Of a stretch of DNA of 64,000 nucleotides, positions 26,325 to 39,348 are shown in pieces. The stretch covers positions 11,825 through 75,824 of IMG/VR virus record IMGVR_UViG_3300011442_000002; one strand, given 5' to 3'. Within the stretch, counting starts at the first letter, position 1. Every line of letters begins with the position of its first letter. The translations under genes were made by a program, and so were the position numbers. The notes beneath the pieces were generated by a model. It saw only the letters and a list, made by a program, of their open reading frames with translations, was not told the origin of the DNA and ran no database searches. The DNA comes from a virus (Duplodnaviria > Heunggongvirae > Uroviricota > Caudoviricetes).

Positions 26325-26699
26325 ATGGGTACAAAAGCAAATTACGAAACAATGAACTATGCAGCCCGACGCGAGAGAATGGATAAATCGCGCCGTGCTG
26401 GACAACTTAACCGAATATATCGACGTGATGGTGGTATCTGTCAACTCTGCCACAGACCATGTAGTAGAGCCGATGCATCCCGCGATCATATCAAAGACTT
26501 TGCACTGTGTACTCCAGAAGAAGCAAAAGATGATGACAACATGGTACTTGCACACAAAGAGTGTAACAACAACAAGCATCACAAACCTGGACACAGTGTA
26601 GATGTTCGCGATAGAAATTCACACCTAAGCTTCACAATTCAAGAAGCATTTCCAGATTTTAAGTGGAATATAACAGATTTGCCTTCTGAGTCGGATTGA
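26325..26699 (+). CDS. HNH endonuclease (free-standing, homing-type)
   Basis: CQLCH...DHI...H..CNNNKH motif set. A sigma70-like promoter lies upstream and a terminator hairpin downstream. Confidence 0.65.
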   Translation: MGTKANYETMNYAARRERMDKSRRAGQLNRIYRRDGGICQLCHRPCSRADASRDHIKDFALCTPEEAKDDDNMVLAHKECNNNKHHKPGHSVDVRDRNSHLSFTIQEAFPDFKWNITDLPSESD

Positions 26700-26758
26700 A
26701 TCGATTATCTAATTACGAGTTCGAATCTCGTTATTGGTACCCGAAAGGTTTGCCAATA
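26688..26758 (+). ncRNA. modular structured RNA element, family copy 1 (GAGTCGGA...GATTATCT + T-arm-like hairpin)
   Basis: Shares the core with elements at 26910, 27146, 27226, 28896, 31057 and 31652. Overlaps the last codons of the HNH gene. Confidence 0.35.
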
Positions 26759-26850
26759 GCACGACGCATGGTAGCGTCAGCACGCGGCAACTAGTGTTTG
26801 TAGCGTGTTAGAAACAACGGTCGATTCTAAAACATATTCAGAAGCTAGTT

Positions 26851-26883
26851 CTACAGTAGTGTTCCGGCACTACTGTAGTTTTC
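26851..26883 (+). terminator. Rho-independent terminator
   Basis: 11-bp perfect stem CTACAGTAGTG/CACTACTGTAG followed by TTTTC. Confidence 0.6.
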
Positions 26884-26909
26884 ATTGTCAGACTTAGGGC
26901 TGACTTTAA

Positions 26910-26975
26910 ACACGGGTCGAACGTTAACGGTTATCTGGCAGAGAATCTTCCGTTAACAATAACATATCCGTGTCC
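26910..26975 (+). ncRNA. modular structured RNA element, family copy 2
   Basis: GGGTCGAACGTTAACGGTTATCTGG...CCGTTAAC, enclosed by ACACGG/CCGTGT. Confidence 0.4.
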
Positions 26976-27145
26976 TTAAGCTTGTTAGTGGATGCGACGC
27001 AATTCCGTTATTGGGTGTCGTAAGCGTACAGTGGAGGACAAGGTACGCATAATACAGTGTGCTAGTTGAGTCGACAGTAACGTCTACATTGTGAACAGTC
27101 GATAGTTATGCTTGTAGAGACTTAGCACACTTCTTAACTTAGCTT

Positions 27146-27190
27146 GGGTCGAAAGTAGTCGGTTATCTAACATATTGCTTCCCGACTACA
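27146..27190 (+). ncRNA. modular structured RNA element, family copy 3
   Basis: GGGTCGAAAGTAGTCGGTTATCTAAC...CCGACTAC. The stem covaries relative to the other copies. Confidence 0.4.
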
Positions 27191-27225
27191 CGCACATACT
27201 ATATCTAAGCGCTGAATTAAAGTTC

Positions 27226-27285
27226 GGGTCGAACGTTGATTGGTTAGCCTATTAAGCCGCTGGTTCCGGGTTCGAATCCTAGCAG
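27226..27285 (+). ncRNA. modular structured RNA element, family copy 4 (with GGGTTCGAATCC T-loop-like segment)
   Basis: GGGTCGAACGTTGATTGGTTAGCC...GGGTTCGAATCCTAG. Confidence 0.3.
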
Positions 27286-27361
27286 AGATTTAGTTATCTC
27301 TGTAGCTCAATTGGTAGAGCAGCGAAAACCCCGATCAACATACACACATCCGAACTATCCC

Positions 27362-27434
27362 ACCCACATAGCTCACCGGATAGAGCATCACACTACGAAT
27401 GTGAGGGTTGTAGGTTCAATTCCTACTGTGGGTA
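27362..27434 (+). tRNA. tRNA-Arg (ACG)
   Basis: Acceptor ACCCACA/TGTGGGT, anticodon loop CTACGAA, T-arm GTAGGTTCAATTCCTAC. Confidence 0.6.
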
Positions 27435-27590
27435 CGCAAGGAAATCGTGTCCGGCCGACATAGAAGGAATCGTGCATCGCCGATATTAATATGAAGGATG
27501 CACAAATTTTTCCAAATAGATGGCTTCGCGTCACTAGATGGAAAGTCAGTGAAGCCACCGGCACTGAATAAACTCTACCGGTGGCGCCTT

Positions 27591-27665
27591 GTGTCTTAAG
27601 TGTAATGGTTTGCACGAGAGCTTCCAAACCTCTTTGAGTGGGTTCGATTCCTACAAGACGCGCCA
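27591..27665 (+). tRNA. tRNA-Trp (CCA), CCA 3' end encoded
   Basis: Acceptor GTGTCTT/AAGACGC, anticodon loop TTCCAAA, T-arm GTGGGTTCGATTCCTAC. Followed by GCCA. Confidence 0.45.
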
Positions 27666-27723
27666 CAATTAAAAACACGGGACAAAGACATTACTCCAGA
27701 AAACAACTAAGTTCAGGAGTATG

Positions 27724-28885
27724 GATGAGTCAAGTAAAAAGAAGTACAAAGCTGGCGTTATCAGTAGTTCTCGCGTCAGTTCTAATCGCAATCGGATTTG
27801 CAGCTAGTGCTAGTGCTGCTCCATCTGGTTTGCAAGCAAGATTACAACTAGCAGAGGATAACCTGGCAAATTGCCAGTTATTGGCTTCTAATGCGACAGG
27901 TAACCAACTAACTAGAGCACAAAATTGTGTAGCAGATAACCAAGCGATCATTAACCTGATCAATGCTCAGTTAAATCCTACACCTGTACCAAGCACTAGT
28001 AGTACGTCACCTGCGCCTAGTGTGACGGTAACAACACCGGCACCTAGTACAACAACTCCAAGTCCTAGTCCTACTGTTACAACGCCGACACCTACACCAA
28101 GTCCCACAGGGCCGTCTACTACTCTGAAGAATTGCTTTAATTATCTTCACCAGTGTGGATATCCCGACCATGGCGATACCGGTGTACCAGTTGGCACAGT
28201 CTTAACTACGTATACTGGACCGGAAACGATTACCGTAGCTGGCACAGTTATCAATGGCAAGTCCATGAAATGTGTCAACATCAAGGCAGCAAATGTAGTG
28301 ATCCGCAATTCTAAGATCACTGGACCATGCTTCTACGGTGTTGAAATGATTAGTGGTTCTTTGCTTATTGAGTACAGCGAAGTAACCTGTGTTGATGGCA
28401 CTGGTACAGGCATTGCAGATGATGGCTTTACTGCAAGTCATGTATATGTTCATGATTGTGAGAATGGCTTTAGCTTAGGTAGCAACAATATAGTTCGCGA
28501 TTCTTATATTTCGGCTCGCGAAGCTACCTCAGCAGGTCATGGCGATGGTATTCAATCGGTTTCAGCAACAAACGTAACTATTCAGCACAACACGTTTGAC
28601 CTGTTTAACCCGGTAACATCGTCCATTATCATGGACAACCTGACGATGAAGAATCTTTTAGTTCGAGATAACTTCGTTTCGTCTGGTGCACTTACAATTT
28701 ATTGTCCAGAAGCTACTTCAAGCAACGTACAATACATTAACAACCGGTTCTATGGCCCAGTCGGTAACACAAGTATTGATCCACGACGACCGGCTTATGG
28801 TTATACTGATGGTTGCAACGTTGCGGCATTTATTTGGGTAGGAAACTACCGTGACTATGATTTAGGTGTAGTTAACAAGAGTTAA
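27724..28885 (+). CDS. secreted protein: signal peptide + Thr/Pro/Ser-rich linker + right-handed beta-helix (pectate-lyase-like) domain
   Basis: Start reset to MSQVKRSTKLALSVVLASVLIAIGFAASASA (signal peptide), then PTPVPSTSSTSPAPSVTVTTPAPSTTTPSPSPTVTTPTPTPSPTGPST, then NxxI/V-rich beta-helix repeats. Confidence 0.5.
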
Positions 28886-28895
28886 ACGTTGATAT

Positions 28896-28960
28896 GGGTC
28901 GGATGTTGTCGGTTATCTAACTATTATTAGAAGGTATGGGTTCGACTCCCATTGTGAAGC
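28896..28960 (+). ncRNA. modular structured RNA element, family copy 5 (with T-arm hairpin ATGGGTTCGACTCCCAT)
   Basis: GGGTCGGATGTTGTCGGTTATCTAAC immediately after the stop of the secreted-protein gene. Confidence 0.4.
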
Positions 28961-29139
28961 TGTGGAGCAATAAAAACCCGATAACGAAAATTTATCCATA
29001 TCTCATAAGCTGCACCGGGCGCCTTGGCTGGTATACCAATCCCCGTGTGCGTAATTGCTCACACTGGTTACTATGGTGGAGATCACAGGCTTGAAACCAT
29101 ATAGCTCCTAGGAAGCTAGTAATCCAGTGTGGGCATCAT

Positions 29140-29212
29140 GCCGCTTTATCCTAATGGACTAAGGAACCACTCTTCCAAAGTGGGTACGCGGGTTCGATTC
29201 CCGCAAGCGGTT
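29140..29212 (+). tRNA. tRNA-Gly (TCC)
   Basis: Acceptor GCCGCTT/AAGCGGT, anticodon loop CTTCCAA, T-arm GCGGGTTCGATTCCCGC, discriminator T. Confidence 0.6.
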
Positions 29213-29302
29213 CGCCTTTTTACTGCGAAGTTATGGCTAGTTGGTAAGTGTGTTCCAAATCTCCAAAAGGGTTTTGGGTCAGATCAAACACTTACCAACG
29301 AT

Positions 29303-29385
29303 AGAAGATTGCCAGAGTGGCTTATTGGGTTGGTTTGCTAAACCAATGAGGGTAACCTCCACAGGTTCGAATCCTGTATCTTCTG
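29303..29385 (+). tRNA. tRNA-Ser (GCT)
   Basis: Type II. Anticodon loop TTGCTAA, variable hairpin GAGGGTAACCTC, T-arm ACAGGTTCGAATCCTGT. Confidence 0.6.
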
Positions 29386-29684
29386 CGTCCAGTTTACCAG
29401 TTCTGTAACTTAGGGTTTGTAAAGACTGGTCGTCCAATCTGTTTTGGCACAGTAATTGTGGTCAGACGCCTAAATGACGTACAATATCGGTGTCGCAGAC
29501 AAGTTTCTTTGCTGGTTTCTTTAACTGTGGTTAGTCAATAAAGAAACCAGCACCCAAACGAGGTTGTAAGTATACGATAACCGTGAGGTATTCGTACGGC
29601 GTGCGCACACTAAAATTCCCTTATGCAGCTAGGTGCAGCCCAGGGGTAAAGATAAGCCGTTCCTAGCAGACTTACAACTTCTTT

Positions 29685-29765
29685 GCCGACATGGCGGAAT
29701 GGCAGACGCGCTAGATTTAGGTTCTAGTATCTTCGGATGTGCGAGTTCAAGTCTCGCTGTCGGTA
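29685..29765 (+). tRNA. tRNA-Leu (TAG)
   Basis: Type II. Anticodon loop TTTAGGT, variable hairpin ATCTTCGGAT, T-arm GCGAGTTCAAGTCTCGC, discriminator A. Confidence 0.6.
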
Positions 29766-29963
29766 CATGAAAAGATGGTTTAATAAGCAGTTTCCATACA
29801 TGCGACGTTGTGAAAAGAAGTGGTGCTTTAAGGGCCAAACCTATGGTGGACATTGTTATTTACATGCATCAAGTTGGTATGGTGTATAGACGAGGGTGCC
29901 ACGTATAAGAGAGTTTACCTCTCCTGGATTTCTAGACCAGATATGTGAAGGTGGCACCTTTGG

Positions 29964-30039
29964 CATTCTATAGCTCAACAGGCAGAGCGGCTGGCTGAAT
30001 TATGGCCGGCGGATTCAGGTTCGAGTCCTGATAGGATGG
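29964..30039 (+). tRNA. tRNA-like (possible Phe GAA; imperfect anticodon stem)
   Basis: Acceptor CATTCTA/TAGGATG, D-arm GCTCAACAGGCAGAGC, T-arm TCAGGTTCGAGTCCTGA. The anticodon arm pairs poorly. Confidence 0.3.
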
Positions 30040-30299
30040 CATTACGACATGGTGATTCCCAGTAGTCTGACTCTGAGGGGTGATCAGATTACTGCAAAAT
30101 ATGTCGTCTTATGCGAATATCACCGAGACGCATAAGGGTGTAGAAGAAGCGACCAAATTGGCGAGGGCTTCCATGTTGGCTAGGGATGAGGCTAACCTTA
30201 AATAAAAGAATAATCCATATTGAAGCGAAAGCAGACCATTTACCGTTAATTGTTACTTGTTTCTACTGTGTCTGTTTTCGCCCGCGAAAAAGGATTGGT

Positions 30300-31040
30300 A
30301 TGAACAGGAATCGATTAGTCGCGACCTTGCTGTCGGGCTTAATCACGATAGGAATTTTGGGTCTTCCGACTCATGCATTTGCAGCGCAAAGCCCACAGGC
30401 AGCAGCGCCAGTAAGTAGCATAACGGAAGTAGCCAATCTTTCAACTAGTGTAGAGAATAAGACAGTAGCTAGCGATACGTCGGTAACTGTTACCCCGTAT
30501 CCTTCGCCTTATGGCAGTCTTTCTGGTATTTCACAGGCTTTCTATGGCGACATTAGTCACTGGCCGGGCCTATGCTCATCCAATGGCATCGCGAATTGTG
30601 ACCTTCTTTATGTTGGTCAGTCAATTAGAGTTCCTACTACTGCACCTGTGGGTCCGGCCCCTGCACCGGCGCCCGCTCAGGCACCAGCAAACAATTCTAG
30701 TAGAGCACAGAGAATTGTAAACTATGCTCTAGCGCAGGTTGGCAAACCTTATGTTTGGGCAGCGGCTGGTCCATATGCCTTTGACTGTTCAGGTTTGGTA
30801 ATGCGTGCACTAGAGCAGGTTGGTGTATATGTTCCACACCAGGATCAATCAATTCTGTATTCTGGTCAAGGCTATGCAGTATCGCGTGACAATCTTCAGC
30901 CAGGTGACATCGTTTGGCCGTACAACGGCCATGTCTTTGTTTACATTGGCAATGGTAAGATTGTAGAGGCAGCCAACCCGGCTCAAGGTGTGATTGTTAA
31001 CAACCTTTACTCGTTTATGGCTGCTCGCCGGTACGTATAA
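30300..31040 (+). CDS. secreted LysM + NlpC/P60 peptidoglycan endopeptidase
   Basis: Signal peptide MNRNRLVATLLSGLITIGILGLPTHAFAAQ. LysM (GISQAFYGDISHW...LLYVGQSIRVP). NlpC/P60 (FDCSGLV...H). Start reset from the listed 30186. Confidence 0.6.
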   Translation: MNRNRLVATLLSGLITIGILGLPTHAFAAQSPQAAAPVSSITEVANLSTSVENKTVASDTSVTVTPYPSPYGSLSGISQAFYGDISHWPGLCSSNGIANCDLLYVGQSIRVPTTAPVGPAPAPAPAQAPANNSSRAQRIVNYALAQVGKPYVWAAAGPYAFDCSGLVMRALEQVGVYVPHQDQSILYSGQGYAVSRDNLQPGDIVWPYNGHVFVYIGNGKIVEAANPAQGVIVNNLYSFMAARRYV

Positions 31041-31056
31041 ATTAATAGGCTTGGAT

Positions 31057-31099
31057 GGGTCGGATCTTATCGGTTACCAATCATATAAACCCGATAAGC
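31057..31099 (+). ncRNA. modular structured RNA element, family copy 6
   Basis: GGGTCGGATCTTATCGGTTACCAATC...CCGATAAG, directly after the stop of the NlpC/P60 gene. Confidence 0.4.
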
Positions 31100-31120
31100 A
31101 AATAAAATACCTATCCAACT

Positions 31121-31205
31121 GGAGAGTTAGCCTAGTGGCCTAAGGCGCCAGTCCTGAAAACTGGAGAAGGTAACACTTCCGTGGGTTCGAATCCTACACT
31201 CTCTG
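31121..31205 (+). tRNA. tRNA-Ser (TGA)
   Basis: Type II. D-arm GCCTAGTGGCCTAAGGC, anticodon loop CCTGAAA, T-arm GTGGGTTCGAATCCTAC, discriminator G. Confidence 0.6.
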
Positions 31206-31236
31206 CGCAAGGTCCCTACTATAGGGAGGAAAATGG

Positions 31237-31632
31237 ATGGCAGATGTTAATATAAGCCTGGATTTCTCAGGATTGCCACCCACCGTAAGTGCTGTCCATG
31301 TGCACATTGAATATGCACACGGGTTAGAAGCGAAAATCGACGCGATTGGAGTACAAGTGTCAGAGCTTGACGACGCCGTAGCTGCTGTAAATGCGCAGAC
31401 TTCGGAGATTCTCGTTAACACTAACGAGCTAGTTAAGGATGTTACTCGACTCATTGAGCAGGGTGACACTTCCGCCGCGCTAGCTGAGCTACAGACGATT
31501 TCTACTAACCTAGAGACAGCTAACGCTGCACTCGTAACGACAGACCAGGCAGTAGAAGTAGCTTCTCCGGAAACTCCTGCTACGCCAGAACCAACCCCAG
31601 TAGTAGCGCCATCGGTAATCGACGAGCTGTAA
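31237..31632 (+). CDS. hypothetical coiled-coil protein
   Basis: 131 aa. Confidence 0.45.
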   Translation: MADVNISLDFSGLPPTVSAVHVHIEYAHGLEAKIDAIGVQVSELDDAVAAVNAQTSEILVNTNELVKDVTRLIEQGDTSAALAELQTISTNLETANAALVTTDQAVEVASPETPATPEPTPVVAPSVIDEL

Positions 31633-31651
31633 AATCAAAGCTTAGCTGTTG

Positions 31652-31740
31652 GGTCGAAGTTAATTGTTTATCTCAGATAGTTTAAAGGGTAAAACAATCC
31701 TCATTGAGGGTTAATGTCGGTTCGAATCCGACTCTGAAAT
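31652..31740 (+). ncRNA. modular structured RNA element, family copy 7 + T-arm hairpin (GTCGGTTCGAATCCGAC); candidate Y-RNA-like ncRNA next to the Ro60 gene
   Basis: GGGTCGAAGTTAATTGTTTATCTCAG with stem ATTGTTT/AAACAAT, then CCTCATTGAGGG, then a T-arm. Confidence 0.4.
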
Positions 31741-31776
31741 TCGTAACGATTACAACACATATCCAATAGTCCTTTG

Positions 31777-31871
31777 GGGACACATGGGTCCACTAGTATA
31801 TTTCTGATCAACTAGTGAGCGTGGGCATGATCAGACCTACGATGATAGGGTTCGAGTCCCTATGTCTCCAC
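31777..31871 (+). ncRNA. tRNA-like ncRNA (acceptor-like stem + T-arm, extra internal hairpin); candidate YrlA-type tRNA-like domain
   Basis: GGGGACA...TGTCTCC acceptor-like pairing. T-arm TAGGGTTCGAGTCCCTA. Internal CACTAGT...ACTAGTG hairpin. No canonical anticodon arm. Confidence 0.35.
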
Positions 31872-32107
31872 ATGAAAGTGCAAAATGATGCAAAAACACT
31901 AATACAAGCACTTGATCTTTTACACGAAGATTTACCTTGTGAAGGTAACATCGAAAAAGAATTTTGTAGTAGATGTATTCATCTTAGGCCAACTTTGGTT
32001 GCATACGTTGAGTCATTGCCACAATGGCAGCTTGGTTTGGTAGTACTTATAATAATTCTAAAATCTCTATACACAATCGTAATATATCCCTTTAGGAGGG
32101 GTCGACT

Positions 32108-33706
32108 ATGGCTAACTCAGCATTCTCCCGTGCGTTAGGCACTCCAGCAATTCAGACCGAAAAGGCTCGCCCGGATCAGGTCGAGAACAACGCTGGTGGA
32201 TTTGTTTTTGAGGTGTCTGACCAGGCACGGCTTGAGCGCTTTTTAATTCTCGGCACTGATGGTGGAACGTACTATACGTCTGAGAAGAAGCTCACTAAGG
32301 AAAATATCGCGTTTTTACAGGACCTTATTGAGCGTAACGAAGACCTAGTAATCGACGTTGTGCGTGCAGTATCCATGGGTGGACGTGCTTACCGTAACTC
32401 TGCGGCAATCTTCACTGTTGCTGCTTTGTTTACCTACGGTAAGGAAAAGTCTTCTCAGCTAGTTGAGGATGTTTGCCGCACTGCGACGCACCTGTTTGAG
32501 TTTGCTGAGTACGTAGAACTACTTGGTGGTTGGGGACGTTCTAAGCGTCGCGCCGTTGCCGAGTGGTACACTAACAAGACACCAGAAGCATTAGCTTATC
32601 AGGTAATTAAGTATCGTCAGCGCAATGGTTGGTCTCACCGCGACCTTCTACGTTTGTCCCACCCTGTGGGCCTTAACAAGCGGGTAGGCAATTTCATTAC
32701 TGGTGAGGACAAGCGTCCTGCTGCTAGTACTACTGACGAAGAAGATTTGGGCATTATCCGTGCTTTCAAGTTTGCACAGGAAGCTCAGTCATTTTCTGAA
32801 TTGAAGAATATGGCGCTAACCGAGCGTAGTCTACCTTGGGAAGCTGTACCTACGGAGTTCCACAAGAATGTCGAACTTTGGAAGACTCTTTTCTACAATG
32901 GTGCGCTCAAAGGTCAAGCCCTTCTGCGTAATATTACTCGCTTGGCTCGTTTGGGCGCTTTTGACGATCTCGTGTTTGCTCGCGATTTCGCTGATGGACT
33001 TCTTAACGAGGAAATGATTAAGCGTACCAAGCTACACCCGATTCAGTACTTGCTTGCACTATCGGTACACCAGATAGGTCAGGTTGATCGTAAGCTTCAC
33101 GTTAGAACTAAGGATTGGCGCGAGTCACACATCATTGTAGATGCACTTAATGAGGGATTCTACAAGGCATTTAGCTATGTAGAGCCAGCAAATAAGCGCA
33201 CTATGATCGGTCTCGATGTTTCAGGATCTATGTCTAGTAGTGCTCTTGGATTAGAACTTAGCTGTGCGCAAATTGGTGCAGCTATGTCTATGTCAATTGC
33301 TCGTACTGAGCCTTACTATGCAATTATGGGCTTCAAGAACAAGTTAACAGACCTTGGTATCACTGCTAGCATGGATCTGAACAGTGTGTTGCAGCGTACT
33401 GAAAACCAAACTTTTGGTAGCACTGATTGTTCGCTACCAATTCTTTACGCACAGATGAACAACATCGCAATTGATACCTTTGTCATTATGACCGACAATG
33501 AAACTTGGTTTGGTAGTGTGCATCCATTCATAGCGCTCCGTGATTATCGACAGAGAACTGGTATTGATGCAAAGCTAGTGGTAGCAGGACTAACGACAAC
33601 TGAATTCACTATTGCAGATCCTCGCGATCGTGGTATGCTAGATGTAGTTGGTGCTGATGCTAACCTTCCAAAGCTTGTTTCCGAATTCAGTGCAGGCAGG
33701 ATTTAA
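32108..33706 (+). CDS. rsr: Ro60 / TROVE-domain protein with C-terminal vWA (MIDAS DxSGS) domain (Rsr-like)
   Basis: LERFLILGTDGGTYY is a TROVE signature. C-terminal GLDVSGSMSS. The size (532 aa) is typical for Ro60 orthologs. Confidence 0.65.
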   Translation: MANSAFSRALGTPAIQTEKARPDQVENNAGGFVFEVSDQARLERFLILGTDGGTYYTSEKKLTKENIAFLQDLIERNEDLVIDVVRAVSMGGRAYRNSAAIFTVAALFTYGKEKSSQLVEDVCRTATHLFEFAEYVELLGGWGRSKRRAVAEWYTNKTPEALAYQVIKYRQRNGWSHRDLLRLSHPVGLNKRVGNFITGEDKRPAASTTDEEDLGIIRAFKFAQEAQSFSELKNMALTERSLPWEAVPTEFHKNVELWKTLFYNGALKGQALLRNITRLARLGAFDDLVFARDFADGLLNEEMIKRTKLHPIQYLLALSVHQIGQVDRKLHVRTKDWRESHIIVDALNEGFYKAFSYVEPANKRTMIGLDVSGSMSSSALGLELSCAQIGAAMSMSIARTEPYYAIMGFKNKLTDLGITASMDLNSVLQRTENQTFGSTDCSLPILYAQMNNIAIDTFVIMTDNETWFGSVHPFIALRDYRQRTGIDAKLVVAGLTTTEFTIADPRDRGMLDVVGADANLPKLVSEFSAGRI

Positions 33707-33912
33707 TGTCAACATTAATTGATGCAGATGAAGAAGTAGTTGTAACTGATGCATATGGAAATAAGGCAAATGTAAGCTACGAAGACGCACTAGATATTGC
33801 TCAATGGTATGAGCTTGACAAGCATGACAAGCTTCATCCAATGACAATAGCAACCATAGTAGCTGCATTGATTACATGTGTATTTTCGCTGTCTGTGGCA
33901 ATTTTGCTATAA
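33706..33912 (+). CDS. small protein with C-terminal TM helix
   Basis: 68 aa. Coupled to the Ro60 stop. Confidence 0.4.
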   Translation: MSTLIDADEEVVVTDAYGNKANVSYEDALDIAQWYELDKHDKLHPMTIATIVAALITCVFSLSVAILL

Positions 33913-34127
33913 CTCCTGCTGTCTGCACTGCAGCAGGATTGCTGGCCAGTTTAGAATACCTCCACTTATTCGAAGACTGCGTTTGACACTATTATTAGAT
34001 TGGGATAGGATCTGATAGTCCCCGCTATCCCTAGTTCCGACCGGCTAGTTGAACTAGGCAATCTAGTATTAGGGCAGGGTGAGCCTGCGGCTAACCATAT
34101 GACCAGCACATAGAGGTTAGCACCTAA

Positions 34128-34200
34128 GCTTCCGTACTCCAATGGCAGAGAGAGCCGACTTAAAATCGGTACAGTATGGGTTCGACTCCCATGGGAAGCA
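34128..34200 (+). tRNA. tRNA with anticodon TAA (Leu-type anticodon) but type I (short variable arm)
   Basis: Anticodon stem GCCGA/TCGGT, loop CTTAAAA, T-arm ATGGGTTCGACTCCCAT. One G-G mismatch in the acceptor. Confidence 0.4.
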
Positions 34201-34201
34201 C

Positions 34202-34414
34202 ATGAACGAACAAGCATTTGAAGAAATGGCAAAACTTTTGGGTCATCAAGTGAAAATAACTCTTTCCTGGGAAGATTCACAATCAATCATTATTGGTAAT
34301 TTCTTTGGATTAGACATCGAAGGTAGTGCTGTCGTAGATACTACCGAAGGTAGACGATACGTTTGGCCTGTGTTATTTGTAGAACATCTTGATTCATGTA
34401 AACATGCATCATGA
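34202..34414 (+). CDS. hypothetical protein
   Basis: Start reset to the ATG just after the tRNA. Confidence 0.35.
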   Translation: MNEQAFEEMAKLLGHQVKITLSWEDSQSIIIGNFFGLDIEGSAVVDTTEGRRYVWPVLFVEHLDSCKHAS

Positions 34415-34418
34415 GAAT

Positions 34419-34490
34419 GGCCCCATTGAGTATTGGTTAGCTTTGCGCTCTTTCACAGCGTAGGACAGGGTTCGATTCCCTGTGGGGCTA
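34419..34490 (+). tRNA. tRNA-Glu (TTC)
   Basis: Acceptor GGCCCCA/TGGGGCT, anticodon loop CTTTCAC, T-arm CAGGGTTCGATTCCCTG. Confidence 0.55.
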
Positions 34491-34595
34491 CGGTAGTACG
34501 TACGGCTCATACCCGTACGTTGCTGCAAGCGGATCACAGTCCGCGCCTGGCAACAGATGAAACTGCTGTGTACAGTGTAATTGAGCCAGGTTTAA

Positions 34596-34669
34596 CGGGA
34601 TATGGCGCAGTTTGGCAGCGCGCTTGCTTTGGGAGCAAGAAGTCGTAGGTTCGAATCCTACTATCCCGA
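34596..34669 (+). tRNA. tRNA-Pro (TGG)
   Basis: C1-G72 pair, anticodon loop TTTGGGA, T-arm GTAGGTTCGAATCCTAC, discriminator A. Confidence 0.6.
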
Positions 34670-34852
34670 CATGTTAATAGAAGATGTAGGAATTAGATTA
34701 GTAACCTCCAATAAACAGCTAACGTACACAGAGCTTTTAGCTTTTCTAAAAGCTATATCTGATCGTAAGATGGAAGCTTGTATGATCTATATAAGGGAAA
34801 ATGGGTTAGAAACTGTAATAGGAAATAATCTAGGGTCGAAGACGGACTAGAT

Positions 34853-35038
34853 ATGTTTATAGTACATCTAGCAGTTGACGAAGCACCAGAACTTACAGTT
34901 TGTGGAATTCCATGGCAAGATTGGCAAGCACCAAGATACGCAAAACATATCACCCTACTTGGTAGGGTGCCAGCAACTGGTGATTTGTTGCACTTTTGTG
35001 ACAAGTGCAGAGCTAGTCTGTTCATCACTGGTGAATAA
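34853..35038 (+). CDS. hypothetical Cys-containing protein
   Basis: 61 aa. Confidence 0.35.
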   Translation: MFIVHLAVDEAPELTVCGIPWQDWQAPRYAKHITLLGRVPATGDLLHFCDKCRASLFITGE

Positions 35039-35238
35039 TTAAATATGGGTTAGTGCCAGAGGTCTGGCAGGCAGTCTGTAAAACTGCTGCACATAGTGCA
35101 ATGTAGGATCGTTACCTACCTGGCCCACAAATCGTGTCTGACATATACATGATATCCACACGAGAGTTACTACTCCGGACGCGCTGCATAGTAACCAAGC
35201 TAGTGGTAAAAAGAGTAACGTGCTTAATATGTCACTTT

Positions 35239-35312
35239 GGGGAATTGGCGCAATCTGGCAGCGCAGGACCTTTGCAAGGTCAAGGCTATCGGTTCAAATC
35301 CGATATTCTCCA
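35239..35312 (+). tRNA. tRNA-Ala (TGC)
   Basis: G3-U70 pair present. Anticodon loop TTTGCAA, T-arm ATCGGTTCAAATCCGAT. Confidence 0.6.
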
Positions 35313-35412
35313 CGATGTGCCTGACATATGCACGTGCCTATAATGACGTAGCAATTAGCGGATATGCTACCGCTCAATAAATAGGGATGGGACCGCTCCT
35401 AATATGTCACTT

Positions 35413-35485
35413 GTGACCATACCATAACGGCTAATGGACTACCCTGTCACGGTAGGATATGAGGGTTCGAATCCCTTTGGTCACG
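35413..35485 (+). tRNA. tRNA-Asp (GTC)
   Basis: Perfect acceptor GTGACCA/TGGTCAC, anticodon loop CTGTCAC, discriminator G. Confidence 0.65.
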
Positions 35486-35619
35486 CGCAATTATTGGTGA
35501 GGGAATGTCGACGGACATGATGGTAGTGGAGTTTTTAGATGGGTCAGGTACGGTAGGCTCTCCGTAGGATGCATACGAAAGAGATCGTACACGACAGTAA
35601 CCTTGATTGCTAAGTCCCA

Positions 35620-35688
35620 TATGAGCTTATGGTAAAGCTCCAACTTCGCGGCGGGATGTAGGTTCGAATCCTACTATGGGACCGTGGA
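35620..35688 (+). tRNA. tRNA-like (acceptor TCCCATA/TATGGGA + T-arm; anticodon arm not foldable)
   Basis: GTAGGTTCGAATCCTAC T-arm and AGCTTATGGTAAAGCT D-arm, but no canonical anticodon stem. Confidence 0.25.
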
Positions 35689-35881
35689 TGCAGAACTAGT
35701 AGTTATTCATTTGATAGATTTCGATGGCAGATTTGGTGACCATCCAGTTGCTTGCAATGGTGCAGTAGCTGGAGATAAAGCCATAACTATCGAACAAGCT
35801 AAAGATCCTGAAAATCAGATGTTTTTTAATTGTCCGAAATGCTATGAAATATTCACTGGAGAAAAGCCAAATGGCGAATAA
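35684..35881 (+). CDS. hypothetical protein (CPKC)
   Basis: 65 aa. Confidence 0.4.
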   Translation: MDAELVVIHLIDFDGRFGDHPVACNGAVAGDKAITIEQAKDPENQMFFNCPKCYEIFTGEKPNGE

Positions 35882-36074
35882 CAATGATTTTCAGATTGAA
35901 CTGCGAGCGCTACTTGGAAAGCACATGATCGACATATATTGCCGCACTCGTGATGTAACTTTAGTAGATTACATCGTAGCATGTCTTACTGCTTATCGAA
36001 GGGCGTTCTTAGAAACAAAGGATTTAGAAGCAGCTAGTTCTAGGGCCGCAGATAACATTTCCGATCCGACATAG
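35871..36074 (+). CDS. hypothetical protein
   Basis: Start reset to MANNNDFQ. Confidence 0.35.
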   Translation: MANNNDFQIELRALLGKHMIDIYCRTRDVTLVDYIVACLTAYRRAFLETKDLEAASSRAADNISDPT

Positions 36075-36137
36075 CTCAGTTGGCAGAGCGCTGCACTGTT
36101 AATGCGGATGTCACAGGTTCGAGCCCTGTTGTCGGAG
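36065..36137 (+). tRNA. tRNA-Asn (GTT)
   Basis: Acceptor TCCGACA/TGTCGGA perfect. Anticodon loop CTGTTAA, T-arm ACAGGTTCGAGCCCTGT, discriminator G. Confidence 0.65.
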
Positions 36138-36167
36138 CGCAAGTTTAACAAACTAGGAGAATTTATA

Positions 36168-36440
36168 ATGGCTGGTGAAGACCTTCAGGCACAGTACAAT
36201 CATCTTCTATGGCAGCTTGGACAGCTACATGAGGAAGCTAAGATTGCTGGCCAGGTTTATCAGGAAAAGCTAAAGGCAATTCGTAAGCGCAGTGAGAAGC
36301 TAAACGAGCATTTGCATAGTCTAGGTTCGGCTATTCGCAAACGGCATACCCCACAGGTGGCCGGTGTAGCGGGTCGATTTCCGCAGGAACAATTGGTTGA
36401 TCCGCGTTCTGACTGGAGTTCCTCGAACGTAGGCGGATAA
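36168..36440 (+). CDS. hypothetical coiled-coil protein
   Basis: Start after the AGGAG SD (MAGEDLQAQ). Confidence 0.4.
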   Translation: MAGEDLQAQYNHLLWQLGQLHEEAKIAGQVYQEKLKAIRKRSEKLNEHLHSLGSAIRKRHTPQVAGVAGRFPQEQLVDPRSDWSSSNVGG

Positions 36441-36474
36441 TATATGAACAGTTAACGAGTCCTAAGGAGGACAT

Positions 36475-36837
36475 ATGTTAAAGGTTCATATATGGTCGCA
36501 CAAAGATGGTGACCACCTAGCAGTTGTTGAAGTACCATGGTGGCATGATATTCTTGATTGGTTGTTTACCAAACTATTTTGTCCTTGCTGTGGGTTTTCT
36601 GGTTGGTTATCTGGAAAAGCAGAATGGTTAGAAATCTTCTTTTGGAAACTATCTAATCATTTAAGTAACTTTACCTGGAAACTTGAAAAAGAGTTGTACA
36701 AAACGCCAATCGAGTCTGGCTGTGTTGCTACTCGGACAATATTTGATCCAAAATCATCTTGTTGGCGTGACAATTGTGATGTTTGTTGGGCTGAGCGAGA
36801 GGATGCATATTCTCATGAAGCGAGGCGCGAAGAGTAG
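36475..36837 (+). CDS. Cys-rich hypothetical protein
   Basis: 120 aa. Contains CPCCGFSGW...CWRDNCDVCW. Confidence 0.45.
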   Translation: MLKVHIWSHKDGDHLAVVEVPWWHDILDWLFTKLFCPCCGFSGWLSGKAEWLEIFFWKLSNHLSNFTWKLEKELYKTPIESGCVATRTIFDPKSSCWRDNCDVCWAEREDAYSHEARREE

Positions 36838-36994
36838 AACTAAAAAAGCTCTACGCGATCAAGCCAACAGCAAGGCCAGAGTTAAACTCCAAAAACAGGT
36901 ACGCGATTGGTTGAAATCGCCAAAGACAGCATTAGATGATAACCAATCAGTACCTGCCCAACATAGACATTCTGTACTGTGGGATGTTGGATGA
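36806..36994 (+). CDS. small basic protein
   Basis: Internal start of listed ORF 36683, after the GAGAGG SD. Confidence 0.3.
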   Translation, partial: HILMKRGAKSRTKKALRDQANSKARVKLQKQVRDWLKSPKTALDDNQSVPAQHRHSVLWDVG

Positions 36995-37254
36995 AAGACT
37001 TTGATTTTGAAGCATTCATGGCTAGGGCGTTGCGCAATGAGCTAGAAGCGCAACGCCCAAGACAATGCTCAGAAACAATTAGTGGTTATCATGATACCAC
37101 AGATCGTCTAGGTAAATGTTGTTTGTGTCGTAAGAAAATCACTAAGGGTGATCGACAGCCAGATCCAGACCTTAAACATAAATCTAATCTAGTACTTGCT
37201 TACGAGTATTTTTATGATCCAAACTATGGTGATAGTGTATATGACCTATACTAA
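36979..37254 (+). CDS. hypothetical Cys-containing protein
   Basis: 91 aa. Confidence 0.4.
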   Translation: MGCWMKDFDFEAFMARALRNELEAQRPRQCSETISGYHDTTDRLGKCCLCRKKITKGDRQPDPDLKHKSNLVLAYEYFYDPNYGDSVYDLY

Positions 37255-37262
37255 TTGAATAT

Positions 37263-37333
37263 GCCCTCGAAGCATTAAGGTGATGCTCCGGACTTTTAAT
37301 CCAGAGAACGCGGATCAATACCGCGCGAGGGTA
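37263..37333 (+). tRNA. tRNA-Lys (TTT), atypical T-loop (ATCAATA)
   Basis: Acceptor GCCCTCG/CGAGGGT, anticodon loop CTTTTAA. The T-stem CGCGG/CCGCG pairs, but the loop lacks TTC. Confidence 0.4.
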
Positions 37334-37345
37334 CGCAACCATAAT

Positions 37346-37417
37346 TGAGCTATGGTCTAATTGGCAGGACGACGGATTTTGATTCCGTTGGTTTAGGTTC
37401 GAATCCTAGTGGCTCAG
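37346..37417 (+). tRNA. tRNA-Gln (TTG)
   Basis: U1-A72 pair, anticodon stem ACGGA/TCCGT, loop TTTTGAT, discriminator G. Confidence 0.6.
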
Positions 37418-37588
37418 CGTGAAAACATTTGAGCTTGTCGAAAAGCTACATGAGCTTATGCGACAAACCGGTAAGGGTGGTCGAGAAATTCAAATCATAT
37501 CCGATGATGGATATGTTCTCGACATTGTCCAAGCTAAATTTGATCCAGAAAATGAGAAGTTTTTCCTAATCACTGAGGAAGCAGAATA

Positions 37589-38521
37589 ATGGCCTGGGAA
37601 TTTTGGTTTACGATCGTTTTTGCTGTATTAGCTTTTTTTGTTTATAGGATTAAGATTTCTTCACGAGCCAATCTTAAGCAAGCTAATGAAAATGGTACAC
37701 GAGAAGAGAAAAACAAAGCAACAGTTATTAGTGCTGGATCTTCAACACTGTTTGCAATTGCAGCAGGATTAGCCGGACTGTTCTTTTTCTTCTCAATTGC
37801 TTACGCAGTGCCAGTACGCAACGTAGGTATTGTTACCTCGTTTGGCAATCCCACAGGTAGAATCACTGGCAGCGGACTTAAGTTTGTGCTTCCATGGCAA
37901 AAGGTAGCAGACTTTGACGCCTCAGTACAGTTCTCTGATCATACTGGTGCCGACCATTGCACGACAGTTCGTATTGGTTCACTTGCTACGGCTTGTGTAG
38001 AAAATCGAATTGGTTGGCAGGTATTAGAATCAGCAGCACCAAGACTGTACCGTGACTACAAGGGATCTTTTGATAACCTTAAGAATAACTTGGTAGAAAC
38101 CAAGTTCCAAAATGCCCTTAATGCGGTGTTCGCCACATATAACCCGTTATCACAGGTAAATATTGCTACTGGACAAACCTCGTTCGATGGTGCTAAGCTT
38201 AGTCAAGAGCTTGAAGCCGAGCTAAATCGCACCATTGGTAGCGATATCAAAATCCTTACAGTATCTGTGCCACTCGTGCATCACGATGAAAAAACTGAAG
38301 CTAATATCAAGGCTTTCCAGGACGTGATTGCTAAGGCTAGAATTCTAGATCAGCAGCTAGCCAATGCCCAAAAGGAAAAGGCAATTGCAGACCTTCAGGC
38401 TGTATACCTAACTACTGAATACATTCAGAACAAGTGTATTGAAGAGTCAGTTAAGATGGGTGTACCTCCTGGACTATGTCTAGTTGGTGGTCAAGCTATC
38501 GTAGACACGAGGAAACCATGA
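37589..38521 (+). CDS. SPFH/band-7 (prohibitin/stomatin-like) membrane protein
   Basis: N-terminal TM segments, then VPVRNVGIVTSFGNPTGRITGSGLKFVLPWQKV and a coiled-coil tail. Confidence 0.5.
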   Translation: MAWEFWFTIVFAVLAFFVYRIKISSRANLKQANENGTREEKNKATVISAGSSTLFAIAAGLAGLFFFFSIAYAVPVRNVGIVTSFGNPTGRITGSGLKFVLPWQKVADFDASVQFSDHTGADHCTTVRIGSLATACVENRIGWQVLESAAPRLYRDYKGSFDNLKNNLVETKFQNALNAVFATYNPLSQVNIATGQTSFDGAKLSQELEAELNRTIGSDIKILTVSVPLVHHDEKTEANIKAFQDVIAKARILDQQLANAQKEKAIADLQAVYLTTEYIQNKCIEESVKMGVPPGLCLVGGQAIVDTRKP

Positions 38522-38685
38522 ACAAAGCTGAACTAGAACGTGCACTAAAGAGAGTTACTGGTATGGCTCTTAAGAAGGTTGTAGTTAATTTGGGCGATGA
38601 TTTGCTAAGTGACATTGATCATGTGTATTTCGATGAAGCACTCGGTTGTGTAGTAATTGTACCAGCTTCTACCATTGAAGCCTAA
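38518..38685 (+). CDS. hypothetical protein
   Basis: Internal ATG (MNKAELERALK), coupled to the SPFH gene stop. Confidence 0.35.
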   Translation: MNKAELERALKRVTGMALKKVVVNLGDDLLSDIDHVYFDEALGCVVIVPASTIEA

Positions 38686-38959: not shown

Positions 38960-38961
38960 CA

Positions 38962-39335: not shown

Positions 39336-39348
39336 GATAGGTGACCAA

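Follow-up and report, generated by a model that had tools for sequence, protein, structure and literature searches.

The window (the whole 64,000-nt stretch of phage DNA that was analyzed) very probably encodes a Ro60-Y RNA ribonucleoprotein system, as judged from sequence and predicted folds, consisting of a Ro60 ring protein and seven Y RNAs on the same strand (table 1). The phage is uncultured and its closest cultured relatives are actinobacterial phages, with a portal identity of ≤33%. At the DNA level, no relative turned up among GenBank phages, where a tRNA-Pro was the sole match. The Ro gene and the Y RNAs lie in an array of tRNA genes whose order is conserved in four syntenic phages (L005 to L008). 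ARAGORN reported 22 tRNAs, one of which ("Asn att") is the interior of Y RNA Yf, and Rfam added one at 27591-27662, which gives about 22 real tRNAs where the original prediction had placed about 20 around Ro.

Table 1. Predicted features of the window, in order of position, with the basis of each call
Feature	Position	Strand	Basis
Co-oriented tRNA array, about 22 genes, holding Ro and all Y modules	26018..42264	+	ARAGORN, Rfam
Y RNA Y0	26683..26844 (with terminator-like hairpin, to 26888)	+	fold, descriptor, orthologs
Y RNA Ya, plain two-helix hairpin (ACACGGGU-CGAAC-GUUAACGG-UUAUCU...)	26909..26974	+	pattern, descriptor, fold
Y RNA Yb, plain two-helix hairpin (GCUUGGGU-CGAAA-GUAGUCGG-UUAUCU...)	27141..27211	+	pattern, fold, descriptor
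Y RNA Yc, canonical YrlA architecture	27221..27356	+	Rfam RF02553, fold z -2.9
Y RNA Yd, docking stem and insert with T arm alone (AUGGG-UUCGACU-CCCAU)	28891..29002	+	pattern, fold, descriptor
Y RNA Ye, plain two-helix hairpin	31052..31117	+	pattern, fold z -2.7, ortholog
Y RNA Yf, next to Ro	31646..31769	+	fold, ARAGORN, Rfam tRNA, orthologs
T95, tRNA-like ncRNA, 95 nt	31776..31870	+	exact parse, homologs, compensatory changes
Cys-rich small ORF, 88 aa from ATG	31863..32138	+	homologous ORFs in L007, L008
Ro mRNA leader element, AU-AUCCC-UUUAGGA-GGGGU-CGAC	32084..32106	+	sequence, MFE, covarying stems
Ro60/Rsr ortholog, 532 aa	32108..33706	+	Pfam, PDB matches, conserved MIDAS
Conserved structured RNA, about 190 nt	33934..34127	+	alignment with L007, L008

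The predicted Ro protein is a full-length Ro60/Rsr. It combines a TROVE HEAT-repeat ring with a Ro60-type vWA domain in which the MIDAS (DxSxS...T...D) is intact. The signatures from which a Ro60 ortholog had been predicted are in place, LERFLILGTDGGTYY of TROVE at residues 42-56 and DVSGSMSS of the MIDAS at residues 370-377, and the HMM searches proposed along with them gave strong matches to both domains in Pfam (TROVE PF05731, 2.4e-35, 123 bits where the cutoff is 23; vWA_Ro60 PF25045, 3.2e-61, 1-164 of the 165 profile positions covered). MIDAS residues D370, S372, S374, T439, D440, T462, and D463 are invariant across 25 relatives. From end to end, the phage protein can be aligned with the solved structures of Deinococcus radiodurans Rsr (PDB 2NVO; E 1.8e-100, query 15-531 against chain 17-533) and of Xenopus and human Ro60 (1YVP, 8.7e-97; 9NEN, 1.4e-96). 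By analogy, it may act in RNA quality control or in tRNA/rRNA processing.

The seven Y modules span 26683-31769, all on the + strand, which is that of Ro, and are interleaved with tRNA genes. In all seven, the 5' strand of helix 1 ends in G(G/A)GU and the 3' strand starts with AYYY after ..AYAU; helix 1 is followed by a 5' bulge (CGRAN), helix 2, and (G)UUAUC. The bulge and the (G)UUAUC correspond to GNCGAAN0-1G and YUAY, respectively, the motifs defined for YrlA-type Y RNAs by Chen et al. 2014 (PMC4201824). GNCGAAN0-1G is exact in Ya (GUCGAACG), Yb (GUCGAAAG), Yc (GUCGAACG), and Yf (GUCGAAG), and Y0, Yd, and Ye have a one-base variant, GUCGGAU(G/U/C). For YUAY, six of the seven modules have UUAUC or UUACC and Yc has UUAGC. 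MFE folds of all seven form the motif-bearing stem from paired 5' and 3' ends. Chen et al. also call for a tRNA-like domain in at least one Y RNA per species, and here the order of T arm, acceptor-like stem, and D arm is found in Yc (by Rfam alignment) and apparently in Y0, and is absent in Ya, Yb, Ye, Yd, and Yf. Distances to Ro are 0.34 kb for Yf, 1.0 kb for Ye, and 3.1 kb for Yd; Yc, Yb, Ya, and Y0 are 4.7-5.4 kb away, beyond the 4-kb criterion of the same authors. With its published YrlA motifs placed in the stem as expected, its position 340 nt upstream, and its orientation on the Ro strand, Yf fits the adjacent Y-RNA-like RNA that the original prediction had paired with Ro60.

The modules differ in what the docking stem carries at its distal end. 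Ya, Yb, and Ye carry nothing and are YrlB-like, and Yd carries a lone T arm. The stem of Yc bears a permuted tRNA mimic made of a T arm, a closed acceptor-like stem, and a D arm (GUAGCUCAAUUGGUAGAGC). Y0 probably has a YrlA-like permuted mimic: its docking stem, with GAGU-CGGAUU, encloses a T arm and a closed stem, then a D-like arm, along with one additional hairpin. Ye is laid out as UGGAUGGGU-CGGAU-CUUAUCGG-UUACC...CCGAUAAG-...AAAU-ACCUAUCCA. In Yf, stem 1 (CUGUUGGGU/AUCCAAUAG), the bulge CGAAG(U), and stem 2 (UAAUUGUU/AACGAUUA, then UAUCU) surround an unpermuted cloverleaf (31670-31742) of acceptor stem, D arm, hairpin, and T arm, and the MFE fold equals the centroid (z -2.3). The hairpin in the place of the anticodon arm has 6-7 bp and a 3-nt loop. 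ARAGORN reported this interior as tRNA-Asn(att) and Rfam scored it as a tRNA at 44 bits with a truncated anticodon loop; it lacks the 5-bp anticodon stem with 7-nt loop of a functional tRNA, and at the place of that loop Rfam aligns only 4 nt and the fold gives a loop of 3 nt. What was first described as a T arm joined to a GGGTCGAA...TTTATCT module lies at 31651-31733, and Yf, which contains it, is one of seven Y RNAs.

Orthologs in related phages preserve pairing across changes in sequence. Those of Yf (L005 8838-8972, L007 9262-9386, L008 9530-9658, L021 7454-7579) differ in their stem sequences. The ortholog of Ya (L007 4177-4252) shares stem 1 unchanged, and its stem 2 is wholly different yet paired. 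Orthologs were also found for Ye (L008 9060-9126) and Y0 (L005 2203-2356, L006 4958-5132). Each of the four syntenic phages has at least 5-8 Y modules, with compensatory changes in the stems.

Pattern and fold statistics also single out the docking module. The pattern GGGTCGRANNTNNNNNGTTAYC has five matches in the window versus 0.22 expected, one of them being the module at 31651-31733, with both helices pairing in all five, and a structural descriptor recovers the seven loci on the + strand only. Fold z-scores range from -2.3 to -3.6, the latter being that of Ya, for which 0 of 200 shuffles were equally stable. Across 30 modules from five phages, pairing over 17 pairs amounts to 98.4%, a percentage that is partly circular because the descriptor used for selection demands pairing, and double changes occur in 15 of the 17. 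The covariation score of these modules is 0.99, whereas shuffles score 0.28 and slid registers ≤0.22. The alignment was made from segments trimmed to a fixed length, since MAFFT misaligned the 3' halves of real short modules. A covariance model built from the trimmed modules did not recover the real ones (best true match 12 bits, E 0.9, amid noise) and is intolerant of real inserts; we therefore used the descriptor with a strand control. Over 92 Ro loci (921 kb), it gave 93 matches on the Ro strand and two on the opposite strand. A relaxed descriptor, with ∼14 chance matches per 64 kb, was left out of the counts.

Rfam recognizes these modules poorly. The gathering score of the YrlA model RF02553 is 69 bits; Yc matched at 39 bits (E 5e-7, model positions 23-87) and the other six modules had no match. 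A covariance-model match to Y RNAs, proposed as a check on the original prediction, was thus obtained from sister copy Yc and not from Yf. At the gathering score and at E≤10, Rfam returned nothing for Yf as a Y RNA, T95, the leader element, or the downstream RNA at 33934-34127. Three cultured actinophages that encode Ro score on a par with Yc or lower in the YrlA model (mycobacteriophages Bxz1, 32.5 bits, and Farewell, 36.6 bits; Microbacterium phage A3Wally, 40.8 bits), so that the gathering threshold excludes phage members generally.

The location of the modules could instead mean that they are not partners of Ro. They could serve the tRNA array as signals for processing or stability, whether as leader-trailer duplexes, sites for RNase III/E, or hairpins resembling terminators, or they could be tRNA genes in decay, with their nearness to Ro a by-product. 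Consistent with this, the modules sit between tRNAs, and a gap of only 3 nt separates Ye from tRNA-Ser(UGA), which starts at 31121. The L005 ortholog of Yf, like Yf itself, encloses a tRNA-scoring element (56 bits), a 12-bp terminator-like hairpin with a T-run follows Y0 on its 3' side (26851-26888, terminator scan), and the Rfam YrlA model misses six of the seven modules. However, helices that covary around a bulge of fixed sequence are unexpected for decaying genes, and three copies are without any tRNA-like part. Moreover, the invariant single-stranded motifs are exactly those of Ro-associated YrlA and YrlB (PMC4201824), and modules occur near Ro also in loci without large tRNA arrays and favor the Ro strand 93:2. 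We consider array signals or tRNA decay to be very unlikely and favor a set of Y RNAs that partner Ro.

The mRNA of Ro appears to carry its own copy of the Y-RNA docking site. The leader element ends 1 nt before the Ro AUG, is shaped like a Y-RNA stem 1, flanking motifs included, in circularly permuted form, and holds the SD sequence AGGAGG (32094-32099) in its loop and 3' arm. The same architecture, with covarying stems, precedes Ro in L005 to L009, L012, and L014. A strict motif for it is found in 35 of 84 phage or metagenome Ro loci versus 0.075 expected per window. A hairpin with CGRA precedes 30 of 77 Ro starts versus 12 of 690 other SD-preceded ORF starts (odds ratio of 36). The position of this putative mimic over the ribosome-binding site of Ro suggests feedback control, in which free Ro would repress its own translation through the leader and Ro synthesis would be tied to the supply of Y RNAs.

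Alternatively, the hairpin could be an ordinary structure of the initiation region that functions in SD sequestration, mRNA stability, or processing, its likeness to the docking site being coincidental and Ro not being autoregulated. We give this somewhat less than an even chance. The hairpin (MFE, AUCCCUU/GAGGGGU) is energetically unexceptional, with a z-score of only -1.2, and CGAAAGG overlaps generic purine-rich, SD-like runs. The strict motif is absent from about 55-60% of phage-type Ro loci, and leader stems match the Y stems of their own lineage no better than permutations do (2.88 vs. 2.80 matching bases, 692 of 2,000 permutations, not significant). A literature search found no autoregulatory operator for Ro60. 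Against coincidence, the enrichment at Ro starts is 36-fold over other SD-preceded starts of the same loci, and at least 14 different stem sequences retain pairing. The 3' arm of the leader ends in G(G/A)G(U/C), as helix 1 of the Y RNAs does, and AU is directly 5' of the stem in 28 of 35 hairpins, matching the ..ACAU before Y helix 1 even though it was not part of the search. We also considered whether the element is general to bacterial rsr genes. This is unsupported, as the motif is not enriched overall in bacterial rsr loci (11 of 71 vs. about 9 expected) and the clear cases among the 71 loci are from Nocardia and Polyangium only.

Between Yf and Ro is T95, which is exactly the 95-nt tRNA-like RNA with acceptor and T arm and no anticodon arm that had been described from the sequence. 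In T95, an acceptor stem of 7 bp that contains G3.U70 is accompanied by a discriminator A, two hairpins, and a T arm with GUUCGAGUC. T95 is without a D arm and a 7-nt anticodon loop, and its loops are 8-10 nt. The two hairpin loops are complementary (UCUGAUCA / UGAUCAGA) and could kiss. Homologs identified with nhmmer (L005 8977-9065, L021 7588-7671, L006 6812-6897) show compensatory changes in both hairpin stems. The Watson-Crick run between loops is 8 nt in the window and in L005 (1 of 5,000 shuffles), 6 nt of a different sequence in L006 (64 of 5,000), and only 3 nt in L021, which is not significant. By folding energy alone, T95 does not stand out significantly (z -1.2). An IMG/VR pattern scan for T95 returned the contig of L005 again and one chance match in coding sequence.

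T95 could act in translation and not with Ro, either as a tRNA that is degenerate or unusual or as an alanine acceptor resembling a mini tmRNA. The acceptor stem, T arm, and discriminator A are in keeping with this, as is G3.U70, the alanine identity pair, and related Streptomyces phages carry tmRNA. We nevertheless consider it unlikely. G3.U70 is present in three of four homologs and L005 has G3-C70, and in three of four phages T95 is directly between the Yf ortholog and Ro. Identification as a functional tRNA was rejected, as neither ARAGORN nor Rfam calls a tRNA and there is no D arm. Likewise, neither tmRNA nor permuted tmRNA was called (ARAGORN, RF00023/RF04321) by tools that detect the tmRNA of phage Comrade, and the 55-nt interior is too short for a tag ORF.

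Two other conserved features flank Ro. The original prediction saw no convincing ORF in the 470 nt upstream of Ro, but a conserved ORF of 88 codons is found there. Its product is Cys-rich in the N-terminal half (C-x8-C-x2-C-x-H) and hydrophobic in the C-terminal half, and the ORF overlaps T95 by 8 nt and the start of Ro by 31 nt. Homologs with 33-35% identity are directly upstream of Ro in L007 (9736-10008) and L008 (9751-10008) and are absent in L005 and L006. The alignment has 18 invariant columns, including C23, C32, C35, and H37; invariant Y72, R76, G77, and R78 are not independent evidence for a protein because the conserved leader hairpin encodes them. Downstream, a structured RNA lies between Ro (plus a 68-aa ORF) and tRNA-Leu(UAA). 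Alignment with L007 and L008 predicts 52 pairs, 16 of which have compensatory changes, and nhmmer found the RNA in those two phages only, plus a weak match in L021. A possible likeness of its GCUGGCCAG...GACCAGC to the metazoan Y stem involves imperfect pairing.

A model of how the components could work together can be patterned on D. radiodurans, S. Typhimurium, M. smegmatis, and Thermus phage phiLo. Y RNAs may be freed from transcripts of the tRNA array by tRNA-processing enzymes; Ye abuts a tRNA, and Y0 has its own predicted terminator. Ro would bind the docking helix, and the Y RNAs would gate the cavity of Ro and link it to a partner in the host, for example PNPase, thereby redirecting turnover of structured RNAs during infection. 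Which partner is selected possibly depends on the distal module. A fuller version, which we regard as possible though rather doubtful, is that a docking-site mimic controls Ro60, also for some Nocardia and Polyangium rsr genes, with Y RNAs and Ro mRNA competing for the protein, that interchangeable distal modules of the seven Y RNAs, diversified from one docking stem, route Ro to different partners, and that T95 is a further component.

Knowledge of what Ro60-Y RNA particles do comes mostly from a few model organisms, and the tRNA mimicry of bacterial Y RNAs still calls for an explanation. With one docking stem and four kinds of distal module in one genome, this phage group is a natural system for studying the function of distal modules. 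Two Y modules and the leader hairpin, all unannotated, are present in the cultured Streptomyces phage Comrade, and Peebs has the leader hairpin; the presence of the same elements in Comrade makes these ideas genetically testable. If the leader element is an operator of Ro, it would be the first feedback loop reported for any Ro60 and would offer a simple reporter assay for recognition of RNA by Ro. The Rfam YrlA threshold misses these phage members, and a model of the docking stem would annotate many more.

Features of the locus have parallels in other regulatory and phage RNAs. The operator of Escherichia coli thrS mimics the anticodon arm of tRNA-Thr, and ribosomal-protein operators mimic rRNA. 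The leader of Ro would be similar in that a copy of the ligand's recognition element covers the SD or start codon of the gene for the binding protein itself; it differs in being a putative operator, and a literature search found none reported for any Ro60. The tRNA gene cluster of phage T4 includes small stable RNAs of unknown function. As far as descriptions can be compared, T95 is like them in being tRNA sized, flanked by tRNAs, and inside a phage tRNA cluster, with acceptor-like ends, whereas the kissing hairpins and G3.U70 are its own.

Close parallels are found in YrlA and YrlB, Y RNAs that accompany Rsr in bacteria and in mycobacteriophages (Chen et al. 2014, RNA 20:1715; PMC4201824). 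As in those systems, a Ro60 ortholog is accompanied by same-strand ncRNAs with paired ends, GNCGAAN0-1G near the 5' end, and YUAY opening the next loop. Yc and probably Y0 have the T/acceptor-like/D domain of YrlA, and the short copies, like YrlB, have no tRNA domain. In contrast to the 2014 survey, which counted 355 YrlAs in 276 genomes (about 1.3 per genome), there are seven copies in one genome, spread over 5.4 kb among tRNA genes. The 5' strand alone can be recognized in YrlA, whereas both strands of helix 1 are conserved here (..AYAU-AYYY). A T arm alone and a whole unpermuted cloverleaf are additional module types, and all copies are under the gathering score of RF02553. Yf resembles D. 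radiodurans Yrn1 in that its D-like and T arms follow one another as in a normal tRNA and are separated by a shortened "anticodon" hairpin, and in both, the two strands of the Ro-binding helix are conserved (PMC4201824); compared by description, Yf differs in keeping a full acceptor stem, a canonical D arm, and YrlA-type motifs. Thermus phage phiLo has phiRo60 with Yrl1 and Yrl2, Y-like RNAs that bind phage Ro and host PNPase in vitro (NAR 2025; PMC12135203). According to the portion of that report consulted, it likewise has more than one CGAA-containing stem-bulge-stem RNA just upstream of a phage Ro60, with two RNAs versus the seven here, and that portion mentions no tRNA-array context, tRNA-like domains, or leader mimic. 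phiRo60 is distant from the phage protein described here, as it is absent from the tblastn and PDB matches. The core Ro60-Y RNA particle of phages is thus already known, having been published in 2014 (PMC4201824) and 2025 (PMC12135203), and the predicted array of Y genes, leader mimic, and kissing-loop tRNA-like RNA are new variants.

The ORF downstream of the Y-RNA modules encodes a Ro60/Rsr ortholog (Ro). The original prediction assigned this 532-aa ORF to the family, and the Pfam search it proposed is positive for both domains, with vWA_Ro60 (PF25045) matching over the whole profile (E 3e-61) and TROVE (PF05731) matching at E 2e-35. Residues 15-531 align with D. radiodurans Rsr (PDB 2NVO; E 1.8e-100), Xenopus and human Ro60 align equally well, and the MIDAS residues are invariant in 25 relatives. 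In tblastn searches, 358 GenBank phages have Ro-like proteins (Mycobacterium, 212; Streptomyces, 115; and others), the closest match being at 54% identity in Streptomyces phages of the Stanwilliamsviridae. The window also has genes for a Mu-like portal, terminase, PolA, and SNF2 helicase, and is identical to a 75.8-kb soil-type metagenome contig in ENA. Because the portal is ≤33% identical to its counterparts in Arthrobacter and Corynebacterium phages and no DNA-level similarity to GenBank phages was found, the sequence is taken to be from an uncultured phage with actinobacterial phages as its nearest cultured relatives.

Seven Y-RNA modules upstream of Ro share a single architecture. The module predicted next to Ro, GGGTCGAA...TTTATCT, is present and is a member of repeat family D5 in a repeat search. 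A sequence-only scan of the window for the pattern GGGTCGRANNTNNNNNGTTAYC yielded five matches, all on the + strand, versus 0.22 expected; reading and folding added two more divergent copies. In each module, helix 1 (8-10 bp; 5' strand ending in G(G/A)GU) is followed by a 5' bulge, CGRAN, and a helix 2 of 8-10 bp. On the 3' side of helix 2 are (G)UUAUC, a variable insert, and the return strand of helix 2, then a 7-13-nt loop ending in ..AYAU and the return strand of helix 1, which starts with AYYY. The bulge corresponds to the GNCGAAN0-1G motif and UUAU to the YUAY motif, both defined for Ro-associated YrlA and YrlB RNAs, the former being the proposed Rsr contact (Chen et al. 2014, PMC4201824). 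The modules differ in their inserts, which are of four types.

Features of the Ro region and their counterparts in related phages (window positions unless a relative is named)
Feature	Position	Strand	Description
Second leader-like element	13617-13645		ACAU-AUUCCC-caaaa-GGGA-CGAUC, directly before ATG 13641
Y0	26683-26844	+	insert: T arm, closed stem, D-like arm, extra hairpin; probably YrlA-type
Terminator-like hairpin	26851-26878		belongs to Y0
Ya	26909-26974	+	insert: plain loop
Yb	27141-27211	+	insert: plain loop
Yc	27221-27356	+	insert: permuted T/acceptor-like/D domain (YrlA-type)
tRNA	27591-27662		Rfam tRNA, 45 bits; missed by ARAGORN
Yd	28891-29002	+	insert: lone T arm
Ye	31052-31117	+	insert: plain loop
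Yf	31646-31769	+	insert: complete, unpermuted cloverleaf
T95	31776-31870		95-nt tRNA-like RNA
Small ORF	31863-32138		C-x8-C-x2-C-x-H motif, hydrophobic tail
Leader element	32084-32106		predicted mimic of the docking site
Ro	32108-33706	+	Ro60/Rsr ortholog
68-aa ORF	33706-33912		begins in the Ro stop codon (TAATG overlap); C-terminal hydrophobic segment
Structured RNA	33934-34127 (L007 11668-11849; L008 11631-11816)		~190 nt, conserved
tRNA-like gene	35613-35683 (L005 13080-13151; L006 16147-16221)		follows tRNA-Asp; acceptor, D, and T arms
Band_7 gene	37589-38521 (L001 15482-16414)		downstream of Ro, in tRNA array
Fic-domain gene	~41600-42100 (L001 19486-19989)		downstream of Ro, in tRNA array
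Yf ortholog	L005 8838-8972		contains tRNA-Phe(GAA) at 8864-8936
Mini tRNA-like element	L005 9070-9137		68 nt; acceptor GCAUGGA../..CCAUGCC, D and T arms, almost no anticodon arm
Rfam tRNA	L006 8756-8863		108 nt, 43 bits
Comrade Y modules	L009 (NC_048728) 8090-8340		one plain, one YrlA-type
Comrade leader hairpin	L009 8940-8976		AUAU-GCCCA-guu-UGGGC-CGAAAGG

Folding, conservation, strand bias, and the presence of modules in a cultured phage are four lines of evidence that these modules are more than chance matches. Minimum free energy folds reproduce both helices (z-scores of -2.3 to -3.6). The Rfam YrlA model aligns to Yc (39 bits; E 5e-7), a score that falls short of the gathering threshold, 69. 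Matches in the mycobacteriophages Bxz1 (32.5) and Farewell (36.6) and in Microbacterium phage A3Wally (40.8), used as controls, also fall below it; thus the threshold is uninformative for phage members. Four syntenic metagenomic phages (L005-L008) share the tRNA order, have a Ro 61-64% identical to that of the window, and under a stricter screen each have at least 5-8 modules, whose locations upstream of Ro correspond but whose helix sequences differ. When 30 modules are aligned in fixed register, 98.4% of cells are paired, but because the structural descriptor by which the modules were chosen demands pairing, the diversity of pairs is informative and this percentage is not. Double changes occur in 15 of 17 pairs, and the covariation score is 0.99 versus 0.28 for shuffled and ≤0.22 for slid-register alignments. 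Across 92 Ro loci (921 kb) of relatives from metagenomes and GenBank phages, the strict descriptor has 93 matches on the Ro strand versus 2 on the opposite strand. Many of these loci have 2-5 copies, and the seven of the window are at the high end of the range. In a survey of YrlAs, 355 were reported in 276 genomes (Chen et al. 2014, PMC4201824). In Streptomyces phage Comrade, two modules precede Ro by 650-900 nt and lie in a gap of the GenBank annotation; neither they nor the leader hairpin of this phage are annotated.

The arms of Yf are in the order that Chen et al. (PMC4201824) describe for D. radiodurans Yrn1. Its "anticodon arm" consists of 6-7 bp closed by a loop of 3 nt, explaining why ARAGORN calls a "tRNA-Asn(att)" and Rfam finds a truncated tRNA. 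In L005, the cloverleaf inside the Yf ortholog scores as an ordinary tRNA-Phe(GAA) (56 bits) and is a second Phe gene in that phage. This suggests that the Yf-type Y RNA evolved from a pre-tRNA, or still serves as one, with its leader and trailer pairing into the predicted Ro-docking stem.

The last ~25 nt before the AUG of Ro, AU-AUCCC-UUUAGGA-GGGGU-CGAC, resemble the same docking site. They combine helix 1 of the Y modules with both flanking motifs, ..AU on one strand and CGRA on the other, with a loop closing the helix at the end that carries the termini in a Y RNA, and with the Shine-Dalgarno sequence in this loop and the 3' arm. The design recurs before Ro in the four syntenic relatives, Streptomyces phages Comrade and Peebs, and Microbacterium phage A3Wally, with varying stems (AUCCC/GGGGU, ACUCC/GGGGU, GCCCA/UGGGC, AUCC/GGGU, GCUCG/CGAGC). 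A strict motif (5-bp hairpin, 3-9-nt loop, CGRA or CGAC immediately after) is in the expected interval of 35 of 84 phage-type Ro loci, versus 0.075 expected per interval, and is missing from more than half. At least 14 different stems are used, and AU, which the search did not require, precedes 28 of the 35. The motif is before 30 of 77 Ro starts; among the other ORF starts in these loci that follow an SD, it is before 12 of 690 (odds ratio 36; Fisher p 1e-23). Phylogenetically, the loci are not independent of one another. Bacterial rsr loci show no enrichment, with clear cases only in Nocardia and Polyangium, and no tracking of leader stems with lineage-specific Y stems was found. It is plausible, and we lean slightly toward the view, that this predicted mimic gives Ro feedback on its own mRNA; no published description of Ro autoregulation was found. 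The second leader-like element, before a 98-aa ORF of doubtful coding quality, could be another mimic or could be due to chance.

The 95-nt tRNA-like RNA predicted between Yf and Ro (T95) parses as such and has homologs. It has a 7-bp acceptor stem with G3.U70 and discriminator A, two hairpins (CACUAGU/ACUAGUG and CGUGGG/CCUACG), and a T arm. Searches with nhmmer found homologs in L006, in L005, and in a further relative, L021; in the latter two, nothing but the homolog lies between Ro and the Yf ortholog's end of the region. Both hairpin stems have compensatory changes, in L005 (GCUAGU/ACUAGC and CUCAGA/UCUGAG) and, with others, in L021 and L006. The loops of these hairpins are complementary over an 8-nt Watson-Crick run in the window and L005 (1 of 5000 shuffles) and over 6 nt of different sequence in L006 (64 of 5000); the 3 nt in L021 are not significant. 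Conserved arms, compensated hairpins, and complementary loops point to a conserved tRNA-like RNA whose loops are probably in contact. It is not a decoding tRNA or a tmRNA; neither ARAGORN nor Rfam calls it as either. Position is the one apparent link of T95 to Ro.

Other tRNA-like elements are nearby. In L005, the mini element sits between the T95 ortholog and Ro, where the window has a Cys-rich ORF. In the conserved tRNA-like gene that follows tRNA-Asp, the anticodon region is degenerate or short; the window copy escapes ARAGORN, which calls those of relatives "Leu(taa)" or "???". In the Rfam tRNA of L006, the acceptor, D, and T arms are normal and the anticodon arm contains ~40 extra nt; these could be an intron, or the whole could be a further tRNA-like ncRNA. 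The window tRNA missed by ARAGORN is assigned as tRNA-Trp(CCA) from its anticodon loop and synteny with relatives.

The 470 nt upstream of Ro had been described as lacking a convincing ORF. This is incorrect, since the small ORF there is conserved (L007 and L008 have ORFs in this position that are 33-35% identical to it). Downstream, the TAATG overlap suggests that the 68-aa ORF is translationally coupled to Ro; it has no Pfam match, and no counterpart was seen at that position in L005, L007, or L008. The structured RNA fills the gap from Ro and this ORF to tRNA-Leu(UAA), extending to the 5' end of that tRNA. Its RNAalifold structure has 52 predicted pairs, of which 16 show compensatory changes, and Rfam has no match. 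A band-7-like gene is also near Ro in Comrade and A3Wally, indicating a recurrent neighborhood.

The protein family, RNA motifs and predicted folds, conservation, and strand bias are established in this analysis, and published systems suggest how the parts may act. In D. radiodurans and S. Typhimurium, Ro is bound by Y RNAs, which tether it to PNPase, and YrlA is a substrate of tRNA enzymes. In vitro, the Ro of Thermus phage phiLo binds two Y-like RNAs encoded upstream of it and enters a complex with PNPase of the host (PMC12135203). By analogy with these systems, the Y RNAs of this phage would be freed from transcripts of the tRNA array and then loaded onto Ro, guiding it toward host factors for RNA decay or tRNA handling. 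A tRNA-Ser begins 3 nt after the end of Ye, and Y0 has its own terminator-like hairpin. No genes for RtcB, RNA ligase, or PNPase were seen among the window ORFs examined.

We found no earlier description of a seven-gene Y array in which one docking stem carries four types of distal module, of conservation of both strands of helix 1, of a leader mimic of the docking site, or of the T95 family. The core finding is of a known type, because knowledge of phage Ro60 dates from 2003, that of phage YrlAs from 2014, and that of a phage Ro-Yrl-PNPase complex from 2025 (PMC12135203).
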